Source: a virus. Taken from it: 64,000 nt of DNA. Below, in pieces: positions 3,962 to 26,570 of the stretch (positions are counted from its first letter, which is position 1; every line of letters starts with the position of its first letter). Position numbers and translations under genes: made by a program. The notes beneath the pieces were generated by a model that worked only from the letters and a program-made list of their open reading frames with translations, made no database searches and was not told where the DNA came from. The stretch lies in the IMG/VR virus record IMGVR_UViG_3300023700_000001, one strand, 5' to 3'.

Positions 3962-3984
3962 TCCTTTAGGTTTACTTTTAATAA

Positions 3985-4005
3985 CCCCACCTTGCGTGGG
4001 GTTTT
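3985..4005 (+). terminator. rho-independent terminator
   Basis: CCCCAC-cttgc-GTGGGG hairpin followed by TTTT. Confidence 0.7.
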
Positions 4006-4017
4006 GTCATTTATCCC

Positions 4018-4045
4018 TTGTCGTTATTGCAAATTGATGTATAAT
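4018..4045 (+). promoter_or_regulatory. sigma70-type early promoter
   Basis: TTGTCG, 16-nt spacer, TATAAT. Shares the attgcaaattgatgTATAAT core with the promoter at 5737. Confidence 0.6.
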
Positions 4046-4051
4046 AACTAC

Positions 4052-4231
4052 ATGGAAACGAAAAACAAAACCTCTCGCCTCTACTACGCTAACACTTGGT
4101 TCACGATGCCTTTCCGTGTTCATGGTTATTGGGTCGAGGACGCCACTGGTAAGAACGTCGCTGAAGCTGCTAGCCGAGAGTTAGCCGAAGCCATTAAACA
4201 GACCCTGAACTCAATGGAGCCAACAAAATGA
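4052..4231 (+). CDS. hypothetical protein, 59 aa (candidate leaderless mRNA)
   Basis: Track ORF 3992..4231 runs through the terminator and promoter. The in-frame ATG at 4052 lies exactly 7 nt after TATAAT and has no SD. Confidence 0.5.
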   Translation: METKNKTSRLYYANTWFTMPFRVHGYWVEDATGKNVAEAASRELAEAIKQTLNSMEPTK

Positions 4232-4612: not shown

Positions 4613-4646
4613 TAACCCTCAGAATTGTAGGTTATCCAGATACTTG

Positions 4647-4675
4647 TTGTCGTAGTTGCAAGATGGCTGTATAAT
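4647..4675 (+). promoter_or_regulatory. sigma70-type early promoter with conserved leader
   Basis: TTGTCG, 17-nt spacer, TATAAT, followed by the conserved leader ACTACAGTTGATTAGGA (4677-4693). Confidence 0.7.
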
Positions 4676-4700
4676 AACTACAGTTGATTAGGAGAACGAA

Positions 4701-5196: not shown

Positions 5197-5394
5197 ATGG
5201 ATCTAATCAAAGTCGGTAAAGCCCTCAATTACTTGTGGAGCACTTACGCTAAGGTAGCAGCATACAAGGAATACGCCTCTACAGCGTCCCATAGGGCTGA
5301 AGAAGGACACTATACTCGCCGTGCTCTGAAGTGGAAGGCTAAGGCTATCGTCGGTCACGACCGAATCCTGACAGATAAAACCCCATACTTCTGA
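5197..5394 (+). CDS. hypothetical protein
   Basis: ORF track; AAGGA upstream. Confidence 0.6.
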   Translation: MDLIKVGKALNYLWSTYAKVAAYKEYASTASHRAEEGHYTRRALKWKAKAIVGHDRILTDKTPYF

Positions 5395-5413
5395 GGGTTA
5401 TTCCAGAAAGTTG

Positions 5414-5441
5414 TTGTCCAAATTGCAGATTGATGTATAAT
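5414..5441 (+). promoter_or_regulatory. sigma70-type early promoter with conserved leader
   Basis: TTGTCC, 16-nt spacer, TATAAT. Upstream box GAGGGTTATTnCAGAAAGTTG. Leader ACTACAGTTGATTAGGA at 5443-5459. Confidence 0.7.
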
Positions 5442-5465
5442 AACTACAGTTGATTAGGAAACAAA

Positions 5466-5732
5466 ATGCCACGCAAAATGAACCAACCCTCGACAATCTT
5501 GAAGAACATTATGAACGACTGTTCTTGGCCAAGCGAGGCTCTTGTGCGAACAACTTGGTCGGATGAAAAGATTATCGCTGATCTGAAAGACTTTGCTGAG
5601 CAAATGTGGCACAATCAGTACATCGAAGTCGATGTTAGCAAAGTGACTCCCGAAGCGTTTCGTAAAGCAGCTGTGCGCCAGCAATTGTACTTGAAAGAAC
5701 TTTGGGCAGGTGAGCCAGAAGAATTTATGTGA
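5466..5732 (+). CDS. hypothetical protein
   Basis: ORF track. First gene behind a promoter/leader cassette. Confidence 0.65.
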   Translation: MPRKMNQPSTILKNIMNDCSWPSEALVRTTWSDEKIIADLKDFAEQMWHNQYIEVDVSKVTPEAFRKAAVRQQLYLKELWAGEPEEFM

Positions 5733-5736
5733 GTTG

Positions 5737-5764
5737 TTGACTTTATTGCAAATTGATGTATAAT
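5737..5764 (+). promoter_or_regulatory. sigma70-type early promoter
   Basis: TTGACT, 16-nt spacer, TATAAT. Confidence 0.7.
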
Positions 5765-5789
5765 AGAGTCATCTGCTTAGGAGATCAAA

Positions 5790-6140: not shown

Positions 6141-6470
6141 ATGATTACCGCAAAGGAAGCCAAAGAACTGTATGACCAAAGTGGTCAAGAAGTTGCTGAC
6201 TATTTGAAGCATACAGTAGAGAAAGAAGTCGTTAAAGCCGCAGAAGGTGGCAAACGTGAAACTATCATCCACTTGGGTAGTATGGGCTCATACGACCATC
6301 TTGATCAGATAATTACTCCCTTGCAAAAGGCTGTGGTTTGGAAACTCAAAGAGTTGGGATATCGTGCAGAGATTAAACTCGACGGTGACTGGTATGTGCC
6401 TCGCGGCTTAGCAGACGATGACGGTAATGGTCCAAAGCATATAAACTACGGCATTCAAATTAGCTGGTAA
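6141..6470 (+). CDS. hypothetical protein
   Basis: Track ORF 6009..6470 trimmed to the ATG at 6141, preceded by AAGGA. Confidence 0.6.
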   Translation: MITAKEAKELYDQSGQEVADYLKHTVEKEVVKAAEGGKRETIIHLGSMGSYDHLDQIITPLQKAVVWKLKELGYRAEIKLDGDWYVPRGLADDDGNGPKHINYGIQISW

Positions 6471-6479
6471 GGAAACAAA

Positions 6480-6668
6480 ATGAACGTACATAAAATCGTA
6501 CCTTGGTTTATTGGAATGGTGTTTGTATTCATCTTCGCCAGTTGGATCACTATGGGTGTTATCGCATACAAGAGTATTGACGCTGTGAATGAACATGGTG
6601 TCAAGGGAGTTATCGAATCCGTCTGGTGCGGTAAAGATGCTGATTGTAAACTACCAGAAAGTAAATGA
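6480..6668 (+). CDS. small membrane protein
   Basis: ORF track. N-terminal TM segment. AAGGA upstream. Confidence 0.6.
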   Translation: MNVHKIVPWFIGMVFVFIFASWITMGVIAYKSIDAVNEHGVKGVIESVWCGKDADCKLPESK

Positions 6669-6904: not shown

Positions 6905-7092
6905 TGACTAATCCTGTAACCAAAGATACCTTAGTTCGTGGTGGCAAGTACAATTGGAAATGGCAACCTGAACGATTGGAATACTTGCGTCAAGTCGGCT
7001 CATGGTTTCAATTTGCGTTGATTTCTGAACCTACGAAAATTTGGTGTGAAGTGCTTGAGAAAGACTTAGTGAACTTTGAGGAATCAAAATGA
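6901..7092 (+). CDS. hypothetical protein
   Basis: ORF track; ATGA overlap. Confidence 0.6.
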   Translation: MMTNPVTKDTLVRGGKYNWKWQPERLEYLRQVGSWFQFALISEPTKIWCEVLEKDLVNFEESK

Positions 7093-7319
7093 ACGTAGAA
7101 CGAATTCAAGAACTGTATAAACAGGCTATCCAATATACTAACAGTGTAATTCCTGCTGAACGACGATACAATGACATCTACTATGCAACTGCCTGTGGTA
7201 AACATGCTGAGTTAATTGTAAAAGAATGTGTCCAAATGTTTGCTGAGAATGGATATGACGAAAGTTGTGATATGCTTATTGAACATTGGGATATTGATCC
7301 AAGAACATTTCGGAGTTGA
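7089..7319 (+). CDS. small paralog family member (frameshifted C-terminus)
   Basis: Has the MNVERIQELYKQA and HAELIVKEC motifs. The canonical family end QEHFGVEE-TGA is present at 7300-7326 but in the +1 frame. Confidence 0.55.
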   Translation: MNVERIQELYKQAIQYTNSVIPAERRYNDIYYATACGKHAELIVKECVQMFAENGYDESCDMLIEHWDIDPRTFRS

Positions 7320-7322
7320 AGA

Positions 7323-7547
7323 ATGAGTATCGTTAATGAAGTGATGAGAGAGTCTGACATCGTATTCGAAGAGGCAGTCGCTGGTGTGCCCATTGCTCTG
7401 CTCTCTATGGATGACATGCACTGTTTCGCTGAGAATTTGATCTTTGAGGTTATCCGTGGACTGCGTAACTCGTATCCACCAGACGACTGTGTACCTATCG
7501 AAGAGATCGAAGCCCATCTACAAGAGAAGTTTGGATTGGACGTATGA
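7323..7547 (+). CDS. small paralog family member (divergent)
   Basis: FAENLIFEVI and a C-terminal EKFGLDV. ATGA coupling. Confidence 0.55.
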   Translation: MSIVNEVMRESDIVFEEAVAGVPIALLSMDDMHCFAENLIFEVIRGLRNSYPPDDCVPIEEIEAHLQEKFGLDV

Positions 7548-7744
7548 ACCCCAAAAGAGTCAAATGTCTAATGGATAAAGCGTATGAGCCATTCAAGAAA
7601 CAAGGCTCGTACTTCACTCAAGAATTGCTGCTGGCTGAGTTCGCACGACTGATTGGTGAAGAAGTTTTGACATTACAGAACCGACACGGTAACATTAAGC
7701 CTCGAGTCGTAAAGGCATATTTTGGAGTTGAAGATAATGAGTAA
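7544..7744 (+). CDS. small paralog family member (divergent)
   Basis: FARLIGEEV and a C-terminal KAYFGVED. Confidence 0.55.
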   Translation: MNPKRVKCLMDKAYEPFKKQGSYFTQELLLAEFARLIGEEVLTLQNRHGNIKPRVVKAYFGVEDNE

Positions 7745-8198
7745 TATTCCTGCAGGTTATCAGTTGCACGTCACCACTTGGGAGAACGATGCTGATGCAT
7801 ATCAGACAAAGATCCTGAATGGTCTTGGCATCAACGATGTCACATTCCTCGTGGCTCTCGCCAAGCAATTTAAGTCACGCAATAGTAGCAATGGTCTTGG
7901 TAATGGAGCAACCACTCGTGATGAGTTGATTGCTGCTATTACATCTGCTCTGACAGTATGCAAACCAAACCAGAAACTCCAAGATCAGATCGATGCTTTC
8001 TATACAATCAAAGATGAGGAAGACGAAGATGACACCAATGGATTCTATGTCTATGAATGGCTGACTGAGACGCTGCTGGGCTATCCAGTGGAAGAATTCT
8101 ATCGCTATGACTACGAACGATTCTGTCGAGTCTATTCAAGCCATGAAGTGTTCTTGATTCCATTGGAGTGCATTAACGTATCGGAGCAATTCCAGTGA
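7737..8198 (+). CDS. hypothetical protein
   Basis: Track ORF trimmed to the ATG at 7737 (8-nt overlap). Confidence 0.6.
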   Translation: MSNIPAGYQLHVTTWENDADAYQTKILNGLGINDVTFLVALAKQFKSRNSSNGLGNGATTRDELIAAITSALTVCKPNQKLQDQIDAFYTIKDEEDEDDTNGFYVYEWLTETLLGYPVEEFYRYDYERFCRVYSSHEVFLIPLECINVSEQFQ

Positions 8199-8503
8199 CC
8201 AAGCAACAATTCATAGACCACTACGTGTGCACGTTTCTGGCTAGCTACATGGCTGGGAACTATGAACGTGACTGCGCTGAAGGTCATCCAAACGAACCAT
8301 ACGACCACCAACCAGTCGAGGATGCTCGGTTCTGCGCTGAACGTGCTTGGAAGCAATACTACGATCCATACGCTATCGGGCAGAAGCTATTCGACGATGG
8401 CAAGGGTCTGAGCGACGTTATCGGTGCAGTCGAGAAAGAGGACTGGGACGAGTGTCGTAAGGGCTACGAAGAGCAAGCACAACGTAGGTCTTACTACGAC
8501 TAA
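8195..8503 (+). CDS. hypothetical protein
   Basis: ORF track. GTG start overlapping the upstream TGA. Confidence 0.55.
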   Translation: MTKQQFIDHYVCTFLASYMAGNYERDCAEGHPNEPYDHQPVEDARFCAERAWKQYYDPYAIGQKLFDDGKGLSDVIGAVEKEDWDECRKGYEEQAQRRSYYD

Positions 8504-8533
8504 AAGTAAACCGAAAGTATTACTTTTTATTTG
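8502..8533 (+). terminator. weak AT-rich hairpin / terminator
   Basis: AAAAGTAA, 10-nt loop, TTACTTTT, then a T-rich tail. Sits just upstream of a promoter. Confidence 0.35.
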
Positions 8534-8554
8534 AGGGTTATTAGCAGAAAGTTG

Positions 8555-8582
8555 TTGTCTTTCTCGTGGATTGGTGTATAAT
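8555..8582 (+). promoter_or_regulatory. sigma70-type early promoter
   Basis: TTGTCT, 16-nt spacer, TATAAT. Upstream box GAGGGTTATTAGCAGAAAGTTG is nearly identical to the one at 5393. Confidence 0.7.
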
Positions 8583-8608
8583 AGATTCATCTGATAAGGA
8601 AGAACGAA

Positions 8609-8884
8609 ATGCGAAACCCTCTTGACTACATCCCCCACTTGATCCTTGGCTGCATTATCGCTATGCCTCTGCTGCTCGTGGTGTGTGCTATTGATCAAGG
8701 TTTTGGTAGCGATAAAGTCTTGGATACGTTCGAAGGTCAGAAATCAGTTTGTACTCATTATCAGTATAATAACTCCCTGAAGCAAACCCAATGTATGGGC
8801 TACAAGTCAGTGCCAGCTACCTGTAAGAAGGTTGAACACACTGGTCCAGTCTTCGGTACATTCACTAACACCCGTTGCGAGTAA
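8609..8884 (+). CDS. membrane/secreted Cys-containing protein
   Basis: ORF track. N-terminal hydrophobic segment. AAGGAAG upstream. Confidence 0.6.
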   Translation: MRNPLDYIPHLILGCIIAMPLLLVVCAIDQGFGSDKVLDTFEGQKSVCTHYQYNNSLKQTQCMGYKSVPATCKKVEHTGPVFGTFTNTRCE

Positions 8885-8886
8885 TC

Positions 8887-9114
8887 ATGGATATCTTCAA
8901 AATTAAATCAAACCTCGAGAATACGATCGCTGGCAAGGAGATGTTTCTTGTTTCGGAACGAGAAAAGCTAAACTCCGAAGATGCCCACGAACGTATGGTA
9001 GCGTATATTGTAGTAAAGATGTTGGATGTCAACATTGACGAACTCAAGCGTATCCTCGCTGACGTGGAAGTGGTTGCCAACAAGACAATTAATGAGATCT
9101 ATCGCCATGGTTAA
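8887..9114 (+). CDS. hypothetical protein
   Basis: Track ORF trimmed to the ATG at 8887, just after the upstream stop. Confidence 0.6.
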   Translation: MDIFKIKSNLENTIAGKEMFLVSEREKLNSEDAHERMVAYIVVKMLDVNIDELKRILADVEVVANKTINEIYRHG

Positions 9115-9304
9115 ACTACGATATTTCACTATCCAAAATAGAGTCACAGCTGAGACGGTGAAGGAATATGCCAGAGCCAATGATCTGTCGCTCATGGACG
9201 CCAAGCGACGACTGGAGAACAAGTCGTCCACTAATCTACAATACTGGGATGGTCATCTGATGGAATGGGTCACTGTACCTTACGTTACGGAGTATAGAGA
9301 ATGA
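9107..9304 (+). CDS. hypothetical protein
   Basis: Track ORF 9026..9304 trimmed to the ATG at 9107 (8-nt overlap). Confidence 0.5.
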   Translation: MVKLRYFTIQNRVTAETVKEYARANDLSLMDAKRRLENKSSTNLQYWDGHLMEWVTVPYVTEYRE

Positions 9305-9486
9305 ACGAACGAATTGAACAACTTGCTCTACAGGCATCTGAAAATTATGACTATCATCCAGAATTTGCAAAAAAGTTCGCCGAGTTGATTGTTCGAGAAT
9401 GTGCCAGTGCTGTAAATTCAAGGGATGATTCTGACACTGGCTTCTGGGCTAACATTATCAAAGAACATTTCGGAGTTGACGAATGA
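9301..9486 (+). CDS. small paralog family member
   Basis: MNERIEQL, KFAELIVREC and IKEHFGVDE motifs. Confidence 0.7.
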   Translation: MNERIEQLALQASENYDYHPEFAKKFAELIVRECASAVNSRDDSDTGFWANIIKEHFGVDE

Positions 9487-9644
9487 AAGATATTACAATT
9501 GAACAATACTGCGATGGCTGGTCTGTTGAAGTAGATGGGAAGCGTTTCCGTTGGGATCATAACGACGAAGATATGGGAACAGAAGGCATCAAGAAGCTAC
9601 TGGAACATCTTGGTCACACAGTCACAGTCGAGGAGTGTTACTAA
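9483..9644 (+). CDS. small protein, 53 aa
   Basis: ATGA overlap at both ends of the chain. Translated by hand. Replaces the implausible track ORF 9535..9723. Confidence 0.5.
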   Translation: MKDITIEQYCDGWSVEVDGKRFRWDHNDEDMGTEGIKKLLEHLGHTVTVEECY

Positions 9645-9829
9645 TGATTTGGCAAGACGTACTACTACTCTTCATTGCATCAGTGGCTGTTACACGATGG
9701 ATGTACTGCACTGGTTACACTGAAGGCTACCAACGAGCAAAGTTTGATATCAGACAGGAAGAGATCCGCAAGTCTGGTAAGTATTTTATAACGCAAAACG
9801 GTACACTGATGCCACTGGACCCACGATGA
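9644..9829 (+). CDS. small membrane protein
   Basis: Track ORF trimmed to the ATG at 9644 (TAATG overlap). N-terminal TM segment. Confidence 0.55.
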   Translation: MIWQDVLLLFIASVAVTRWMYCTGYTEGYQRAKFDIRQEEIRKSGKYFITQNGTLMPLDPR

Positions 9830-10032
9830 TTTGCACTGAATGTAAACAAGACGAAGACTGCCGACCATATGGACATAATGGAGCATACATCTGCTTTGAG
9901 TGTGCCATGAAGGACGAAGAACGGACTAATCGAAACTTTCTGGCTCAACTGGAAGCTGCTGCCAAACAATCAAGTACAGTCATTATCGGTGAGGAAACTG
10001 GTCCACGACCAATGAATGGAGTAACACAATGA
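9826..10032 (+). CDS. zinc-ribbon-like protein
   Basis: C-x2-C ... C-x2-C. ATGA overlap. Confidence 0.6.
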   Translation: MICTECKQDEDCRPYGHNGAYICFECAMKDEERTNRNFLAQLEAAAKQSSTVIIGEETGPRPMNGVTQ

Positions 10033-10208
10033 AAGTAGCATACGCTGTAGATATGATTGATCCACATTGTCCTTCTGAACGAATCGACTGTGGCCTATTT
10101 GAAACCCTCGAGAAAGCTGGTAAGTTTATCGAGAAGGAACGAGTCCATTATTCTGATCGTATGGAATGGGAAGTCACTGAACACATTTATCATGGTGGTG
10201 AAGAATGA
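10029..10208 (+). CDS. small protein, 59 aa
   Basis: ATGA overlaps on both sides. Translated by hand. Confidence 0.5.
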   Translation: MKVAYAVDMIDPHCPSERIDCGLFETLEKAGKFIEKERVHYSDRMEWEVTEHIYHGGEE

Positions 10209-10396
10209 ATGCTCGACTTCGAGAACTTGAGTCACAGTGCTGGGAAGCTAAACCGTATGGTCCACCATGGTTCGATTCTAAGAAGTTCGCCAAGTTGCTT
10301 ATCTCGGACGTTCTAATCATCTGTGAAAATGCAGGTGATGCTGGTCTAGATGGACACCACTGCGCTGATGAGATTGTAAGGAAATACGAATGCTAA
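10205..10396 (+). CDS. small paralog family member (divergent)
   Basis: MNARLRELESQ and KFAKLLISDV motifs. Lacks the HFGVEE end. Confidence 0.55.
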   Translation: MNARLRELESQCWEAKPYGPPWFDSKKFAKLLISDVLIICENAGDAGLDGHHCADEIVRKYEC

Positions 10397-10512
10397 CTAA
10401 AATTTTACTGGACAAGGACGATCGAATGCTACGTATCGGCTTCGGTAAGAATCGGGGTAACTGGTTCGCTCGAATCGATCTGTGGTGCGTTGGATATAGG
10501 ATTTCAAAATGA
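10390..10512 (+). CDS. micro-ORF, 40 aa
   Basis: Fills the gap between two genes with overlaps on both sides (ATGCTAA / ATGA). Confidence 0.35.
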   Translation: MLTKILLDKDDRMLRIGFGKNRGNWFARIDLWCVGYRISK

Positions 10513-10748
10513 ACGAACGAATTCAACAACTTTACCAACAGGCGCATGAACCACAACCTCCGACTAGAGGAACAGGAACGCTAACTAAAGACATTTTATG
10601 GGAGCAACCTAATAAGTTCAATCCTGAAAAGTTCGTCGAGTTGATCATCCAAGAGTGTAGTGTGGCATTGAATCCTATGCTACGTGATATGGTCTCTCGT
10701 GGTCGTGCAGTTGAATTGATTAAACAACACTTTGGAGTGGACCAATGA
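10509..10748 (+). CDS. small paralog family member
   Basis: MNERIQQL, KFVELIIQEC and IKQHFGVDQ motifs. Confidence 0.7.
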   Translation: MNERIQQLYQQAHEPQPPTRGTGTLTKDILWEQPNKFNPEKFVELIIQECSVALNPMLRDMVSRGRAVELIKQHFGVDQ

Positions 10749-10969
10749 CCTGCAAACATACTAGCATGGATGAACCGACGATGACGTGGGAAGAGACAAC
10801 TGAAGAACTAAGCCAGATCCAGCAGGCATTCGTCTCTCTACATAATACAGGTGAAAAGAACTGGACTCCCGAAGAGAGACAACTGGCATATCAACTAAGA
10901 AAACGATGCGTGGAACTGGGAGAATATCGATATTCTCTATTAAGGAAGAAAAATGGACCAAATAACTGA
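10745..10969 (+). CDS. hypothetical protein
   Basis: ORF track; ATGA overlap. Confidence 0.6.
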   Translation: MTCKHTSMDEPTMTWEETTEELSQIQQAFVSLHNTGEKNWTPEERQLAYQLRKRCVELGEYRYSLLRKKNGPNN

Positions 10970-11180
10970 ATTATTCATCCGTCTAAAGCAGGTGGAGATT
11001 GCACTCGATCTAGTCGTACTATCTCTACCAGATAGTGAACAACTGGCAACTCTAAAGGTTAAGGCAGAACGTCGCCAAGATCGAGTGAAAGCAGAGAACG
11101 AAGCATCAAAAGAATATCTCAATCTAAAGAGTCGCCTGCAAGAACTAGAGAACGACTATCCATCACTGAAGAAGCTATGA
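10953..11180 (+). CDS. hypothetical coiled-coil protein
   Basis: ORF track. Confidence 0.55.
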   Translation: MDQITELFIRLKQVEIALDLVVLSLPDSEQLATLKVKAERRQDRVKAENEASKEYLNLKSRLQELENDYPSLKKL

Positions 11181-11347
11181 CTCTAGAGAATGCACTAAAG
11201 ATTAAAGAACTGCTACAAGAGCTAGTGCCAGATCCAACTATCGACTTCGGTCCAGCCTATGAAGGAACCAAGCAACGACAGAAGGAAGCAATACAGATCC
11301 TGAACGCAGAGATTCGATGGATGAAAGCACTAAGGAAGAAAGCATGA
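11177..11347 (+). CDS. small protein, 56 aa
   Basis: ATGA overlaps on both sides. Translated by hand. Confidence 0.5.
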   Translation: MTLENALKIKELLQELVPDPTIDFGPAYEGTKQRQKEAIQILNAEIRWMKALRKKA

Positions 11348-11505
11348 CAAACTACCAAGTATATTATCTCGCCAATGCAGAAGGCATCCACGCTGGTCCA
11401 TTCCGCACAGTTGAAGCTGCAGTCGAGGGAAAGAAAAAGTTTCACCCGTTGTATGCTACACTATTAAAGGTAGTCAAGGGTAACATCCAAGTGGAGCCAG
11501 TATGA
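11344..11505 (+). CDS. small protein, 53 aa
   Basis: Track ORF 11317..11505 trimmed to the ATG at 11344 (ATGA overlap). Confidence 0.5.
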   Translation: MTNYQVYYLANAEGIHAGPFRTVEAAVEGKKKFHPLYATLLKVVKGNIQVEPV

Positions 11506-11810
11506 ACAAACGAATTCAAGAACTTGCTATGCAGGCATTTATTGCTGATAGCGTGGAGCGTAATCCAAGATATAAGAGATCGGAAAATACTAATATCATT
11601 ATGAAAGACTTGGCAGGGTTTAACAAAAAGTTCGCCGAGTTGATTGTCAAAGAGTGTATGGGTTGCTGTGGTCAAGTTGCTGAGGATGCACATAAGCTAA
11701 AGAGCAGTTCTTTCCTAACTCAAGACGGTAAGCAGTTGTATAATGGTGTTTGGGGTGGAGCTATGAATTGTGGTTCTGCTATTGCGAATCATTTTGGAGT
11801 TGAAAAATGA
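11502..11810 (+). CDS. small paralog family member
   Basis: MNKRIQEL, KFAELIVKEC and NHFGVEK motifs. Longest member (102 aa). Confidence 0.7.
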   Translation: MNKRIQELAMQAFIADSVERNPRYKRSENTNIIMKDLAGFNKKFAELIVKECMGCCGQVAEDAHKLKSSSFLTQDGKQLYNGVWGGAMNCGSAIANHFGVEK

Positions 11811-12010
11811 GTGAACGAATTAAAGAACTTGCTGGGCAAACTGGCATTATTGATGTAGAACTCTTGAATGATTCGCAGAGCAAGATGCTGGAAAAGTTTG
11901 CCGAGTTGATTGTTTGGGAATGTATGGAAATCAACTCAACATTATTGGGCCATAATACTTGTAAAAACTTGCACAACTTGTATAAAGAACATTTCGGGGT
12001 TAAAGAATGA
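11807..12010 (+). CDS. small paralog family member
   Basis: MSERIKEL, KFAELIVWEC and KEHFGVKE motifs. Confidence 0.7.
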   Translation: MSERIKELAGQTGIIDVELLNDSQSKMLEKFAELIVWECMEINSTLLGHNTCKNLHNLYKEHFGVKE

Positions 12011-12291
12011 ACGCACGAATCAAAGAACTTTACAACCAATCTGGTGGACTTGTTCGTATGTATGATGGGAAATTGACCTACTTTCCTGCTTATCAGAAGA
12101 ATGTCGGTGATGGTAATTTTGAATTCAGTTCATTTGATCCAGAAAAGTTCGCAGAGTTACTTATTAAGGAATGTGTCGGTATTTGCCTAGATCGACACCA
12201 TACTTGGAGATGGGATAATGAACCTGATTCGTCCAGCGGTCCAAGAGATTGTGCTCAGTCGATCAAAGAACACTTTGGAGTTGAAGAATGA
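12007..12291 (+). CDS. small paralog family member
   Basis: MNARIKEL, KFAELLIKEC and IKEHFGVEE motifs. Confidence 0.7.
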   Translation: MNARIKELYNQSGGLVRMYDGKLTYFPAYQKNVGDGNFEFSSFDPEKFAELLIKECVGICLDRHHTWRWDNEPDSSSGPRDCAQSIKEHFGVEE

Positions 12292-12503
12292 ACAAACGAA
12301 TTCAACAACTTGCTGAACAATGCGTGGCCCGTAAGTTTTATGTTGACCACGCCAGCGAAGAATTTGATTACAAAAAGTTCGCCGAGTTGATGGTCAGGGA
12401 ATGTATGGAGCAGGTTTGGTATACTCGTGAAGATGGTATCAATGGCAATGTTTCTCAAGTTATCAAGGACAGGATTAAACAACATTTCGGAGTTGAAGAA
12501 TGA
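12288..12503 (+). CDS. small paralog family member
   Basis: MNKRIQQL, KFAELMVREC and IKQHFGVEE motifs. Confidence 0.7.
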   Translation: MNKRIQQLAEQCVARKFYVDHASEEFDYKKFAELMVRECMEQVWYTREDGINGNVSQVIKDRIKQHFGVEE

Positions 12504-12733
12504 ACGAACGAATTAAAAAACTCTTGTTACAGGCAAACATCTATGATGGCAGAGAATCAATGTATTGGTGCGAAGAAAAGAATTTGGTCGAGTTCGCCGA
12601 GTTGATTGTGAGAGAATGTATCGGATGTTGTGAACAAGTTATTAGTGATCCTGTTCCTAAATCAGTTGATACTTTTGAACAAGGTGGCATTCATTGTATG
12701 AATGAGATTAAACAGCACTTTGGAGTTGAATGA
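12500..12733 (+). CDS. small paralog family member
   Basis: MNERIKKL, EFAELIVREC and IKQHFGVE motifs. Confidence 0.7.
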   Translation: MNERIKKLLLQANIYDGRESMYWCEEKNLVEFAELIVRECIGCCEQVISDPVPKSVDTFEQGGIHCMNEIKQHFGVE

Positions 12734-13002
12734 TGAACGAACGAATTAAACAGTTAGCAACGGAAGTTGGCATCAGTGTTGAATATCTAAACAATACCAA
12801 GCAGTGGGCATTGATTGAAGCATTGGCTGAACGAATTGTGGACGATTGTATTGAAGTTTGTAAAAGCCGTGTAGGTAACAGCGATTACAATACTGGCAGG
12901 CTACATTGTGTTAGTGATATACGAGAACGATTTGAATTTGGGATGACCACGGAAGATAAAAAGACCCTAATCAAAGAATTACTAGGAGTAAAGAATGACT
13001 AA
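12730..13002 (+). CDS. small paralog family member (extended C-terminus)
   Basis: MMNERIKQL, LAERIVDDC and IRERFEFG motifs, plus an extra tail ending LLGVKND. Confidence 0.65.
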   Translation: MMNERIKQLATEVGISVEYLNNTKQWALIEALAERIVDDCIEVCKSRVGNSDYNTGRLHCVSDIRERFEFGMTTEDKKTLIKELLGVKND

Positions 13003-13201
13003 ACTATTAGAAAGTCTGGCTGTAAAAAGTCTTGTAGAACACAATGGCGAGTTGATTTTTAGCAAAGAACTCTATGCGGCCCTAGTTATCAAAGAATGTA
13101 TTGATGTGATTGATACCACCCACGGCAGTAAGAAACTGTTGCGGCCAGAACCATATCAACAGATTGTAGATAATATTCAAGAACACTTCGGAGTTGAATG
13201 A
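12995..13201 (+). CDS. small paralog family member
   Basis: ALVIKEC and IQEHFGVE motifs. The N-terminal motif is degenerate. Confidence 0.65.
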   Translation: MTKLLESLAVKSLVEHNGELIFSKELYAALVIKECIDVIDTTHGSKKLLRPEPYQQIVDNIQEHFGVE

Positions 13202-15938: not shown

Positions 15939-15953
15939 CCTTACAGATTGTGG

Positions 15954-15970
15954 GGTCTTTCAAAAAGACC
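15954..15970 (+). terminator. stem-loop directly abutting a promoter (PeSL-like)
   Basis: GGTCTTT-caa-AAAGACC. No strong T-tract; the -35 box starts at the next base. Confidence 0.35.
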
Positions 15971-15999
15971 TTGCCTTTAATGTTGCAATCGGTAATAAT
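15971..15999 (+). promoter_or_regulatory. sigma70-type early promoter with conserved leader
   Basis: TTGCCT, 17-nt spacer, AATAAT. Leader ACTACAGTTGATTAGGA at 16001-16017. Confidence 0.65.
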
Positions 16000-16029
16000 T
16001 ACTACAGTTGATTAGGAAAAGGATTTGAG

Positions 16030-16920
16030 ATGACTACAGTGAGTTTTGACGCAGTGAGTGGTAACTACGTGGCTAAAGTGGGTTCGAAGACTATTAAGTC
16101 TTATTCTAAGGCATACGTGGAGCGCAAAGTAAAAGCCCTCGCTGGTGACATGGAACAAGCCATCGTCGTGGCCACTGAGAAGTCTAATCGTTTCGACATT
16201 AACACACGATTCGGTTTCGTTGAGAAACTGGTGACGATGGTTGCTACTGGTGTTCAGCCATCCGCTGTGATCACTGGTGAAGGCGGTCTCGGTAAGACTT
16301 ACACTGTGACTAAGACTCTTGAGACTAATGGTTACAAAGACATCACTGATCTGGCTGAGTTTGAAGTTGGTTCAATCATCAATACTCGCAAGTGTTTCAC
16401 GATGGTTAAAGGCTATAGCACTGCCAAAGGTCTCTACCGCACTCTGTTCGAGAACAACAAGTCTATCATTGTGTTCGATGACTGTGATGCTGTGTTGAAA
16501 GACCCAGTGGCTCTGAACCTGTTGAAAGGTGCTTTGGACTCTTACGGTAAACGTGTTATTAGCTGGAATGCCGATATGCGTGATGACGATCTGCCTCGTT
16601 CTTTCAACTTCGAAGGTCGTGTTATCTTCATCTCTAATATGGACCAGTCTCGTATCGACCAAGCCATTCGTAGTCGTTCGATGATGATCGACCTGTCTAT
16701 GACTCTGGATCAGAAGATCGATCGTATGGAGCACATCGCTCTCTCTGCTGAGTTCTTGCCTGAGTACGATGCTAAGACCAAGACTGATGCTCTGGCTCTG
16801 ATTCGTGAGATCAAGGACGACTGCAAGGAAGTGTCGCTCCGTACCCTTATCTCTGTTACTAAGGTTCGTGCTAGTAACAAAGACTGGAAAGACCTTGCTA
16901 CATACATGCTTACTGCATAA
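16030..16920 (+). CDS. AAA+ ATPase (RFC/clamp-loader-like motifs)
   Basis: Walker A GEGGLGKT, Walker B IIVFDDCD, sensor-1 FISN, SRC-like RSRS. Confidence 0.7.
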   Translation: MTTVSFDAVSGNYVAKVGSKTIKSYSKAYVERKVKALAGDMEQAIVVATEKSNRFDINTRFGFVEKLVTMVATGVQPSAVITGEGGLGKTYTVTKTLETNGYKDITDLAEFEVGSIINTRKCFTMVKGYSTAKGLYRTLFENNKSIIVFDDCDAVLKDPVALNLLKGALDSYGKRVISWNADMRDDDLPRSFNFEGRVIFISNMDQSRIDQAIRSRSMMIDLSMTLDQKIDRMEHIALSAEFLPEYDAKTKTDALALIREIKDDCKEVSLRTLISVTKVRASNKDWKDLATYMLTA

Positions 16921-16954
16921 TCCCCTCAGGCACGTATGGTTATCCATATAGTGC

Positions 16955-16982
16955 TTGTCGAGATTGTAAATTGCTGTATAAT
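16955..16982 (+). promoter_or_regulatory. sigma70-type early promoter
   Basis: TTGTCG, 16-nt spacer, TATAAT. The upstream CCCTCAG...GGTTATCCA box resembles the one at 4613. Confidence 0.7.
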
Positions 16983-17001
16983 AGAGCCATACTAGGAGAG
17001 A

Positions 17002-25555: not shown

Positions 25556-26208
25556 TGAAAAACTTTATACATCATGATTTTGCGAAACTAGTACGTGACA
25601 CAAGACCCGATGGAAAAAGAACATATCTGACTCCATCGGGTTTTTCGTATCCAAGCGTAACAACAATCACAGGACAAGCAACTGCAGAAGGAATTGCCAA
25701 ATGGCGACAGAGAGTTGGTGCTGAAGAAGCTAATCGAATCTCTGGACGAGCATCAGCACGTGGCACTCGGATTCACCAGTATTGTGAGGATTATCTTCGT
25801 GGAAATGTATTCGAAGCTGATATGTTTGACTTGGAGATGTTCAACTCTATCAAGTTCTTACTCGATCAGATTGATAACATCCACTGCTTAGAAACTCCAC
25901 TGTACTCTGATCACTTACAGGTTGCTGGAACGGTTGACTGTATCGCTGAGTTTCAAGGTAAGCTGACTGTTATTGACTTCAAGACAGCAAGCAAGCCTAA
26001 AGATCGAGAAGACATTTACCACTACTTTATGCAATGTGCAGCTTATGCTGTTGCATTTGAAGAACGTACTGGAATTCCTATTGGTCGTCTTGCAATTTTG
26101 ATGGCAGTTGAGAATGACGATCCACGATGGTTTATCGAGAAACGTGATAACTGGATTGGTCCATTCCGTAAGTTACGACTAGACTATAAGAATAAATACA
26201 ATATCTGA
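25555..26208 (+). CDS. PD-(D/E)XK family nuclease (RecB-like exonuclease)
   Basis: GTVDCI ... VIDFKTASK core. Start trimmed to the ATG at 25555 (TAATG overlap). Confidence 0.6.
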   Translation: MKNFIHHDFAKLVRDTRPDGKRTYLTPSGFSYPSVTTITGQATAEGIAKWRQRVGAEEANRISGRASARGTRIHQYCEDYLRGNVFEADMFDLEMFNSIKFLLDQIDNIHCLETPLYSDHLQVAGTVDCIAEFQGKLTVIDFKTASKPKDREDIYHYFMQCAAYAVAFEERTGIPIGRLAILMAVENDDPRWFIEKRDNWIGPFRKLRLDYKNKYNI

Positions 26209-26209
26209 T

Positions 26210-26238
26210 TTGCCTTGCAAGAAATTGTAGAGTATAAT
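26210..26238 (+). promoter_or_regulatory. sigma70-type promoter of the tmRNA gene
   Basis: TTGCCT, 17-nt spacer, TATAAT, immediately after the nuclease stop codon. Confidence 0.65.
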
Positions 26239-26249
26239 TAGAGTTATTG

Positions 26250-26309
26250 CTGTATGAAGCAAAGAGAAAAGTGTTCTGGACGCGGGTTCGACTCCCGCCA
26301 TCTCCACCA
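26250..26309 (+). other. tmRNA acceptor piece (5' end approximate)
   Basis: T-arm GCGGG-TTCGACT-CCCGC at 26282-26298. CATCTCC at 26299-26305. Discriminator A at 26306. Encoded CCA at 26307-26309. Confidence 0.8.
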
Positions 26310-26385
26310 AAAGTGTATTAGTGCAGAGTGTACCTGTTAAACAAAGCCTGAAGACGTTCGGGAGTTCGGCTAGTATACTTTTGAT

Positions 26386-26526
26386 GGGGATGCCATGGTT
26401 TCGACAGGGCAACAAGTAAACAAGTGGACAGCACGGTAGGCGATGACCGTAAATCAAGCAAACTAAGTAAATGCAAACGATAATGTTTGGGCTCTTGCAG
26501 CGTAAGCTGACTTGACCTGAGGTTTC
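26386..26526 (+). other. tmRNA coding piece (3' end approximate)
   Basis: Starts GGGGATG (pairs with CATCTCC), then CCATGGTTTCGACAGGG. Contains the tag frame. Confidence 0.75.
26473..26505 (+). other. tmRNA tag reading frame ANDNVWALAA-stop
   Basis: GCA AAC GAT AAT GTT TGG GCT CTT GCA GCG TAA. Confidence 0.75.
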
Positions 26527-26570
26527 GCTGACTGTCCTTATTACCCAATCAGTCAGCACTTTTAATTTTA
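26527..26570. terminator. hairpin terminator shared by ssrA (+) and the GIY-YIG gene (-)
   Basis: GCTGACTG, 15-nt loop, CAGTCAGC, then ACTTTTAATTTTA. The stop codon of the minus-strand ORF lies in the loop. Confidence 0.55.

Follow-up and report, generated by a model that had tools for sequence, protein, structure and literature searches.

What does a phage do with a dozen tiny genes that share the same beginning, middle and end and have nothing alignable in between? The question is raised by a 64,000-nucleotide (nt) stretch of virus DNA, hereafter the window (IMG/VR record IMGVR_UViG_3300023700_000001), in which a preliminary description, made from the letters alone, had set apart thirteen tiny open reading frames (ORFs) between positions 7089 and 13201 as one family of paralogues. 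The window sits in a metagenomic contig of ~173 kb and belongs to a T4-like myovirus, with genes for a gp32-type single-stranded DNA-binding protein, a baseplate hub/lysozyme, wedge proteins and tail fibres. We consider it reasonably probable that this phage-restricted family has a constant scaffold and genes laid out for the exchange of cassettes in frame.

Membership and layout of the gene family

Three constant blocks run through the family, with the consensus MNERIKELAxQ (N-block), (E)KFAELIVREC (central block) and IKEHFGVEE (C-block). A blind repeat search recovered them independently at the DNA level, as repeat families D1/D6, D4/D7 and D2/D3/D9, which bears out the three shared blocks of the preliminary description.

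All thirteen ORFs are present on the + strand at the positions that had been given for them. A hidden Markov model (HMM) was built from the seven obvious members and scored against all 502 window ORFs of at least 35 amino acids (aa), with leave-one-out scoring of the members. Eleven of the thirteen ORFs are backed in this way: the seven core members at E values of 1e-10 to 8e-18, followed by 7089 (1e-9), 12730 (2e-8), 12995 (6.5e-8) and 10205 (1.5e-4). ORF 7544 is marginal for the HMM (E 0.16) and aligns end to end with a 91-sequence family profile in hhalign (probability 89.7%, E 1.8e-6); its C-block DNA is a copy of repeat family D9. ORF 7323 found no support (HMM E 21; hhalign probability 9%, in the central 21 columns only), and its context is family-like, with the upstream junction, a central 'FAENLIFEV' and a terminal 'EKFGLDV*' with ATGA overlap. 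The search added no further member in the window, the best non-listed ORF reaching E 0.29. Judged by these profiles, the family comprises twelve of the thirteen listed ORFs, 7323 being the one to drop, and the high copy number that had been described stands. The family genes and one displaced block are listed below.

7089..7319, + strand: member, 76 aa (HMM E 1.3e-9); N-block 7089-7121; central block 7200-7229 (KHAELIVKEC); atypical C-terminus with an in-frame partial block 'LIEHW'
7300..7322, + strand: whole C-block DNA (CAAGAACATTTCGGAGTTGAAGA), out of frame at the 3' end of ORF 7089; D2/D9 copy
7323..7547, + strand: doubtful member, 74 aa
7544..7744, + strand: divergent member, 66 aa, without the block Cys; central block 7637-7666; C-block from 7709; D9 copy 7712-7734
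9301..9486, + strand: minimal member, 61 aa (HMM E 2.8e-15); N-block 9301-9333; central block 9373-9402; C-block from 9457
10205..10396, + strand: member, 63 aa (HMM E 1.5e-4); degenerate central block (KFAKLLISDV, 10283-10312) and C-terminus (IVRKYEC)
10509..10748, + strand: member, 79 aa (HMM E 1.1e-13); central block 10629-10658; C-block from 10719
11502..11810, + strand: array gene 1 of 7, 102 aa (HMM E 7.7e-18); central block 11628-11657; C-block from 11781
11807..12010, + strand: array member, 67 aa (HMM E 1.1e-10); central block 11894-11923
12007..12291, + strand: array member, 94 aa (HMM E 2e-14); central block 12145-12174; not in the related locus L099 (see below)
12288..12503, + strand: array member, 71 aa (HMM E 5.8e-13); central block 12375-12404; not in L099
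12500..12733, + strand: array member, 77 aa (HMM E 2.8e-17); central block 12590-12619; second variable segment 'IGCCEQ...HC'; C-block from 12707
12730..13002, + strand: array member, 90 aa (89 aa with start 12733; HMM E 2.1e-8); C-terminal extension 'GMTTEDKKTLIKELLGVKND'
12995..13201, + strand: last array member, 68 aa (HMM E 6.5e-8); central block 13070-13099; C-block from 13175; not in L099

The last seven genes (11502-13201) do form the uninterrupted head-to-tail array that had been described, successive genes overlapping by stop and start codons (ATGA or 8 nt) with zero intergenic DNA. Outside the array, the start region AGGAA(A/T)CAAAATGAACGTA is near-identical in the non-family ORF 6480 and the family ORF 7089 (6470-6488 and 7079-7097; D20), which suggests that the initiation region and first codons may be common to genes beyond the family.

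Reassortment of variable cassettes

Homologues of these genes show two independent variable segments, V1 between the N-block and the central block and V2 between the central block and the C-block, which come in discrete recurring types. Among 319 parsable proteins, 214 V1 types and 155 V2 types were distinguished; 48 of the V1 types have at least two V2 partners, 32 of the V2 types have at least two V1 partners, and 17 four-gamete violations were counted. The V1 of 10205 (CWEAKPYGPPWF; CWEA/PxQYGPxWF) is joined to at least five V2 types (P0006, P0022, P0023, P0072, P0116), including those of 9301 (P0072) and 12007 (P0116). The fusion protein P0012 contains the V2 type of 10509 in its second half, and no V2 type is more frequent in the sample than that of 12500, which 58 proteins combine with many different V1. 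ORF 12288 has its V1 again in P0066 and its V2 again in P0083, P0095 and P0113, each with a different partner cassette; the V1 of 12995 returns in P0111 with another V2, and the V1 of 12730 also recurs with a different V2.

Same-type cassettes from different contigs have ratios of non-synonymous to synonymous polymorphism (pN/pS) of 0.165 for V1 (24 pairs) and 0.18 for V2 (56 pairs); the cassettes are therefore translated and under purifying selection. These comparisons point to the reassortment of old types, not to rapid mutation, as the source of the diversity. The centres had been called hypervariable: between the paralogues of the window they are indeed mutually unalignable, but across the family they resolve into discrete conserved cassettes shuffled by recombination.

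A third, optional module appears to be exchanged in the same manner. The C-terminal extension of 12730 (GMSTEDKKTLIKELLGVKND) is found on several V2 types (P0001, P0046, P0047, P0076, P0088). It lies at 12934-12999 of the window, reads G-M-S/T-T-E-D-K-K-T-L-I-K-E-L-L-G-V-K-N-D and was also seen in P0055 and P0090; its end (ATC AAA GAA TTA CTA GGA GTA AAG AAT GA) resembles a second, degenerate C-block. Four proteins, P0004 (163 aa), P0012 (131 aa), P0139 (154 aa) and P0153 (145 aa), are two-unit in-frame fusions with two matched stretches each. Such fusions are consistent with stop loss at an ATGA junction and, by Rosetta-stone logic, adjacent units might interact.

Assembly chimeras were considered as a source of the mosaics and are unlikely. 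Paralogues within a genome share exact runs with a median of only 15 nt; 3.7% of pairs reach 31 nt or more, and the window maximum is 23 nt. Mis-joins in a De Bruijn assembly are therefore no general explanation of the mosaics. Moreover, the recombinant proteins are found on many contigs (P0059 on 40, P0011 on 31).

Breakpoints of exchange between related phages

Copy number differs between related phages. The locus L099 is syntenic with the window, with flanks that are 95.5% and 94.3% identical, and holds two family genes against the seven of the window. In a blastn map of the two, every discontinuity in the array falls in a constant block, with segment boundaries at window positions 11536, 11790, 11925, about 12620/12728, 12938/12998 and 13179. 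The breakpoints relative to L099 are as follows.

~11536: N-block of 11502
11790: junction of 11502 and 11807
11925: end of the central block of 11807, beyond which L099 carries the V2 of 12500
12728 to 12938: C-block of 12500, with a switch to the extension of 12730
12998/13179: terminal junction

Window 11790-11925 corresponds to L099 2565-2700 at 96.3%, the match stopping exactly at the end of the central block, and window 12938-12998 to L099 2805-2865 at 91.8%. The chimera in L099 is P0001, an intact three-way protein of 97 aa.

Conservation of silent sites and the gene junction

At the DNA level the constant blocks are near-invariant over ~24-30 nt (ATGAACGAACGAATTAAAGAACTT; AAGTTCGCCGAGTTGATTGT.NNNGAATGT; ATTAAAGAACATTTCGGAGTTGAAGAATGA). 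In the window, Arg4 is encoded by CGA in 10/10 members against a genome usage of 7%, the central Ala mostly by GCC (8% usage) and the C-block Gly by GGA (18% usage). The codon preferences were followed in 301 members on other contigs, of 31-55% GC, where CGA is used for Arg4 in 183/195 (background 13%), GCC for the central Ala in 165/196 (19%), GAG for the central Glu in 166/196 (24%) and GGA for the C-block Gly in 172/175 (23%). Over 7,529 inter-contig pairs in which both cassettes are unrelated, the same codon is found at a fraction of 0.771 of the positions with identical amino acids. Ordinary genes shared by the same contigs, taken as a control, give 0.43-0.51 where the proteins are 20-80% identical, and only when identity exceeds 90% does the value rise to 67%. 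Simple gene conversion within genomes was rejected as an explanation of the frozen codons, within-locus identity being equal to between-locus identity.

The C-block ends in TTC GGA GTT GAA GAA TGA, in which GGAG, a Shine-Dalgarno motif, and a 7-nt spacer precede an ATGA overlap with the next start; the overlap occurs in 218/301 members. In its sequence this junction has the features of a translational coupling signal, and part of the silent-site conservation is explained because the C-block encodes GGAG/ATGA for the next gene. That explanation does not cover the N-block or the mid-gene central block.

The same junction is the starting point of the alternative that survives best, namely that the frozen codons reflect a function at the level of RNA or translation (initiation region, coupling, mRNA stability) and that recombination is an incidental by-product. 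GGAG, 7 nt and ATGA make a textbook coupling signal in which the Gly codon hardly ever departs from GGA; junctions of a similar kind stand after some ORFs that lie outside the family by score; and the block DNA is retained out of frame at 7300-7322, where it still provides GGAG and a spacer to the ATG of ORF 7323. Equal conservation within and between genomes is also what a universal constraint predicts. Yet the central block (AAG TTC GCC GAG TTG ATT), mid-gene and far from any start, is equally frozen, and the rare CGA and GCC codons are not those that translation selection would be expected to favour. No covariation was found for an RNA helix between N-block (GAACTT) and central block (AAGTTC), and Rfam has nothing in 7-13.3 kb. 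We regard this alternative as unlikely.

The region 7292-7330 deserves a separate description: the in-frame partial C-block LIEHW is followed there by the frame-shifted full C-block DNA (…CAAGAACATTTCGGAGTTGAAGAATG), which feeds the next start. The arrangement may be either a recombination or frameshift scar, or a DNA motif retained for a coupling function.

Predicted fold and composition

Two members with unrelated centres were modelled with AlphaFold from family alignments. For 12500 (77 aa) the model has a predicted local distance difference test score (pLDDT) of 81.8 and a predicted template-modelling score (pTM) of 0.70, with helices at residues 3-11, 26-49 and 58-74; for 9301 (61 aa) the values are 86.3 and 0.71, with helices at 3-13, 20-39 and 46-57. 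Both models share a three-helix topology, in keeping with the earlier proposal of a constant scaffold with variable parts. In these predictions the N-block corresponds to helix 1, the central block to the first half of helix 2 and the C-block to the end of helix 3, while V1 is the connector of helices 1 and 2 and V2 the distal half of the hairpin of helices 2 and 3. The constant blocks thus probably form the core of a three-helix mini-bundle, of which V1 and V2 are probably the exposed, exchangeable parts. Most of V2 is predicted to be helical (pLDDT 65-94).

The proteins are mostly acidic (median pI 4.9). V2 often carries C-x3-C...(H)C, and 166/319 members combine the Cys of the central block, the C-x3-C and a late Cys at the start of helix 3; another 84/319 have a V2 without any Cys. 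A four-ligand Cys/His metal site like those of the zinc-binding helical regulators, ZAS anti-sigma factors (H-x3-C-x2-C) and DksA/TraR (four Cys), is thus not conserved across the 319 members, and the DksA fold match is not significant (Foldseek E 3.4). A metal site or disulfide is possible in some cassette types and would not be family-defining.

Distribution and database searches

A profile search of a 5.8-billion-protein collection gave E <= 1e-3 for 7,976 of the 8,000 candidates scored, which saturates that set, and all are unnamed. An exhaustive search of 1.84 billion representatives returned 8,487 clusters (50% identity) at E <= 1e-3 and 955 at E <= 1e-10, whose proteins are nearly all standalone and of 60-110 aa. 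At least 330 family coding stretches are present in IMG/VR. The species genomes of GTDB contain only 15 loci, all on short contigs in freshwater bins of metagenome-assembled genomes, and isolates contain 0; the 15 loci are most simply mis-binned phage DNA. The family is restricted to phages and metagenomes and resides mostly in freshwater T4-like myoviruses; its neighbours elsewhere, apart from the nuclease described below, are genes of replication and nucleotide metabolism, and rIIA, T4-type DNA polymerase, DNA ligase and NrdA were seen among them. Loci of up to 20 kb carry 1-13 copies, and multi-copy arrays are usual.

The family had been described as unrecognised, and it matched no characterised group in the libraries searched or in profile searches of phage and metagenome proteins. 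Pfam and PHROGs gave no match, NCBIfam and PADLOC only sub-threshold noise, PDB sequence profiles a best E of 0.013 over 19 residues, and Foldseek searches of PDB with the two models best E values of 1.6 and 2.7. Against BFVD, Foldseek found only unnamed relatives (probability about 1.0, TM 0.6-0.75, identity 24-31%), the top matches including A0A7D7JJQ1, A0A6J5KW11 and A0A6J5SZW6; these UniProt/BFVD entries, attributed to 'uncultured Caudovirales phage', belong to the family themselves and have neither a name nor a function nor a family assignment. A tblastn search of deposited phage genomes with one member and the consensus gave a single weak match, in a 'Caudoviricetes sp.' spring metagenome record; megablast of the family region gave none, and deposited phages include no close relative of the window. 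Nothing relevant was found in the literature on the motif strings or on such a family.

Clustering of neighbouring genes in ~80 loci revealed no conserved partner gene. The commonest neighbour, in 13 of them, is a gene for a small GIY-YIG nuclease (110-170 aa; Pfam PF01541, 23.4 bits against a cut-off of 22.6), located 0-1,000 nt upstream of the arrays in 9 of the 13 carrier loci and absent from the window. Examples are the ORFs L024 5672-6037, L044 9226-9732, L039 9663-10001 and L082 8909-9241, and there are 9 more loci. Such an enzyme might make breaks that stimulate cassette exchange. A different accessory context surrounds the one family gene (P0002) of metagenome contig L100 (1-15993; NCBI GCA_013565695.1): an amidoligase, Endonuclease_NS, GGACT, a SegE-like GIY-YIG gene, AhpC, CMD, a NUDIX/cytidylyltransferase and a radical SAM gene. 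The family is therefore not tied to one neighbourhood.

The nuclease also gives substance to a second alternative, a selfish and recently spreading micro-cassette whose blocks are young or are homing or recombination targets, possibly of GIY-YIG nucleases, with little benefit to the phage. Its position upstream of most carrier arrays would fit, as would the nucleotide-level conservation of the blocks across very different genomes, the widely variable copy number and the mobile mini-circles that form part of the PeSL (promoter-early stem-loop) precedent in T4-type phages (PMC2839356). The nuclease is, however, confined to those 13 loci; purifying selection acts on the cassettes at the protein level (pN/pS about 0.17), hydrophobic positions are conserved and folds confidently predicted, and the cassette types, which number hundreds and do not align with one another, cannot all be young. 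We hold this alternative to be improbable.

Comparison with known systems

Shuffling mediated by short repeats has a precedent in the hyperplastic regions of T4-type phages (Arbiol et al. 2010, PMC2839356; Comeau et al. 2014, PMC4122927), and we infer by analogy that the family blocks are a coding-sequence counterpart of PeSL-mediated shuffling. Both are short conserved repeats scattered in the hyperplastic small-gene regions of T4-like genomes. PeSLs serve as homologous exchange points from which insertion, deletion and replacement differences between close relatives arise, with encapsidated mini-circles forming when neighbouring copies exchange, and the family blocks probably act as such points too; here, the indel and replacement breakpoints between the window and L099 coincide with the family blocks. 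PeSLs, however, are intergenic and regulatory (promoter and terminator) and move whole genes, whereas the family blocks are in-frame coding sequence, three per gene, so that the products are chimeric proteins and the units swapped are sub-gene cassettes. In the family blocks, promoter scan and repeat search found neither paired promoter hexamers nor a G+C-rich stem accompanied by a T run. The blocks are also conserved across thousands of phage lineages and not in one phage pair. What is new is an uncharacterised protein family; modular shuffling mediated by short repeats in T4-type phages was already known.

Cassette-based antigenic variation and orphan-module systems, such as Neisseria pilE/pilS, Borrelia vlsE and the cdiA-CT/cdiI orphans of contact-dependent inhibition, rely on one expression site and silent donor cassettes per cell lineage. 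They resemble the family in that conserved blocks flank variable cassettes and allow in-frame recombinational chimeras. In contrast to them, each family copy is a complete gene with its own Shine-Dalgarno (SD) sequence and start codon, and exchange is seen between paralogues and between phages.

A literal reading of the preliminary description, in which positive selection in an arms race against some target drives point mutation of a hypervariable centre, accounts for centres that cannot be aligned between the window paralogues. Same-type cassettes are nevertheless conserved between phages at the low pN/pS given above, and the diversity consists of discrete reassorting types, so that this model is very improbable. 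As regards diversity-generating retroelements, the window repeat search revealed no near-identical template/variable repeat pair, and no search aimed at a reverse transcriptase gene was made; the multi-copy repeat families of the window are the three family blocks and the PeSL-like cassettes, and the cassette types are unalignable, not A-mutated copies.

Precursors of cyanobactins (PatE-type) and prochlorosins are small multi-copy genes with constant flanks, for which nucleotide-level conservation has been reported, and variable cores. They are likewise a natural combinatorial library, but of unstructured and enzyme-processed chains, whereas the family proteins are predicted to be folded bundles. 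That the family itself encodes such ribosomally synthesised and post-translationally modified peptides (RiPPs), with leader or recognition flanks around Cys-rich cores, is the least probable explanation of all: multi-copy small ORFs with nucleotide-conserved flanks and Cys-containing variable cores do fit it, but the neighbour clustering of ~80 loci shows no consistent co-location of maturation enzymes (cyclodehydratase, lanthionine synthetase, protease, radical SAM) or transporters, the whole chain including the cassettes is predicted as a confident helical bundle, 84/319 members lack Cys in V2, and the family occurs only in lytic-type large phage contigs.

Phage context and putative promoters

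Genuine PeSL-like cassettes occur elsewhere in the same window. Its first ~17 kb consist of tiny + strand ORFs interrupted by a repeated stem-loop, promoter and leader cassette, an organisation like that of the hyperplastic regions of T4-type phages (PMC2839356, PMC4122927). The cassette is made up of a G+C-rich stem-loop (e.g. AACCCCACCTTGCGTGGGGTT), the promoter elements TTGTC(G/C/T), 16-17 nt and TGTATAAT, and a leader ...ACTACAGTTGATTAGGAGAACGAAATG with an SD sequence. Copies of repeat family D5 start at 4013, 4643, 5409, 5732 and 8550. Promoter scan and repeat search placed PeSL-like cassettes at the following positions.

3983-4070, + strand: PeSL-like cassette
4643-4700, + strand: PeSL-like cassette
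5379-5466, + strand: PeSL-like cassette
5732-5789, + strand: PeSL-like promoter cassette, TTGACT, 16 nt, TATAAT (scan 11/12; D5); candidate promoter of the unit holding family genes 7089-7744
8550-8607, + strand: PeSL-like promoter cassette, TTGTCT, 16 nt, TATAAT with TG extension, conserved leader and SD (scan 10/12; D5); nearest upstream candidate promoter for genes 8609 to ~15950, including family genes 9301-13201
15950-16028, + strand: PeSL-like cassette
16920-16989, + strand: PeSL-like cassette

These cassettes probably supply the hyperplastic region with its early promoters and terminators. Since neither scan nor repeat search found one between 8607 and ~15950, the family genes 9301-13201 probably lie on one long transcript from the promoter near 8555. 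The early-region location claimed for the family is accordingly a reasonable reading of a small-gene region with sigma-70-type promoter cassettes of the PeSL kind.

Further downstream the window encodes a permuted transfer-messenger RNA (tmRNA) at 26196-26564 (+), recognised by ARAGORN with the tag ANDNVWALAA and by Rfam as RF04321 permuted tmRNA (146 bits) and RF01850 betaproteobacterial tmRNA (117.6 bits). The type of tmRNA hints at a freshwater betaproteobacterial host.

Proposed mechanism and its reach

In the proposed scheme the constant blocks would have two roles, forming the structural core of the protein and providing in-frame joints for recombination, so that each exchange would yield an intact folded chimera while arrays expand and contract. 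The GGAG/ATGA junction would couple the translation of each gene to that of the one before it, on a polycistronic transcript that is probably early. The outcome would be a population-wide combinatorial library of surface variants on one scaffold. The most likely use, plausible though less likely than not to be right, would be the binding of different targets by the individual variants, in the host or in competitors, early in infection and for takeover or counter-defence, as had been speculated in part from the variable cores. Tentative, and doubtful as a whole, is the fuller proposal of a population-level library, used early against host targets or defences, in which second-order selection for exchangeability, over and above constraints on protein and translation, freezes the silent sites.

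Several observations weigh against this interpretation. Regarding function, no homologue with a function, no fold match and no partner gene were found. The placement of V1 and V2 on the models was taken from secondary-structure strings, not from coordinates. Early timing is read from promoter-like motifs only, and their number over 1-17 kb does not exceed that in shuffles (39 against 35.8 expected). The homology arms within a genome are short and imperfect, and exchange must therefore be rare per generation and visible at the population scale only. The blocks are conserved to the same degree within and between genomes (0.780 and 0.771, p about 0.27), and selection on the nucleotide or RNA sequence for another reason could be at work. 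The comparison data are metagenomic assemblies throughout.

The family counts among the larger parts of viral dark matter: it has ~8,500 clusters and no annotation, and it is concentrated in T4-like phages that are abundant in fresh water. It offers a concrete case of phage protein diversity arising by sub-gene cassette exchange, not by mutation or whole-gene swapping. Conservation of silent sites at the joints over genomes of 31-55% GC is unusual and raises the question whether recombinability itself is selectable. The scaffold, confidently predicted at 61 aa, may be of interest to protein engineers. If the variants are specific binders of host or defence factors, they would amount to a collection of small folded inhibitors ready for use, and would mark the phage-host arms race in lakes. 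Should the library interpretation be true, these genes would be a viral counterpart of the cassette-based immune-receptor and antigenic-variation systems, and the first exon-shuffling-like design in phage genes.

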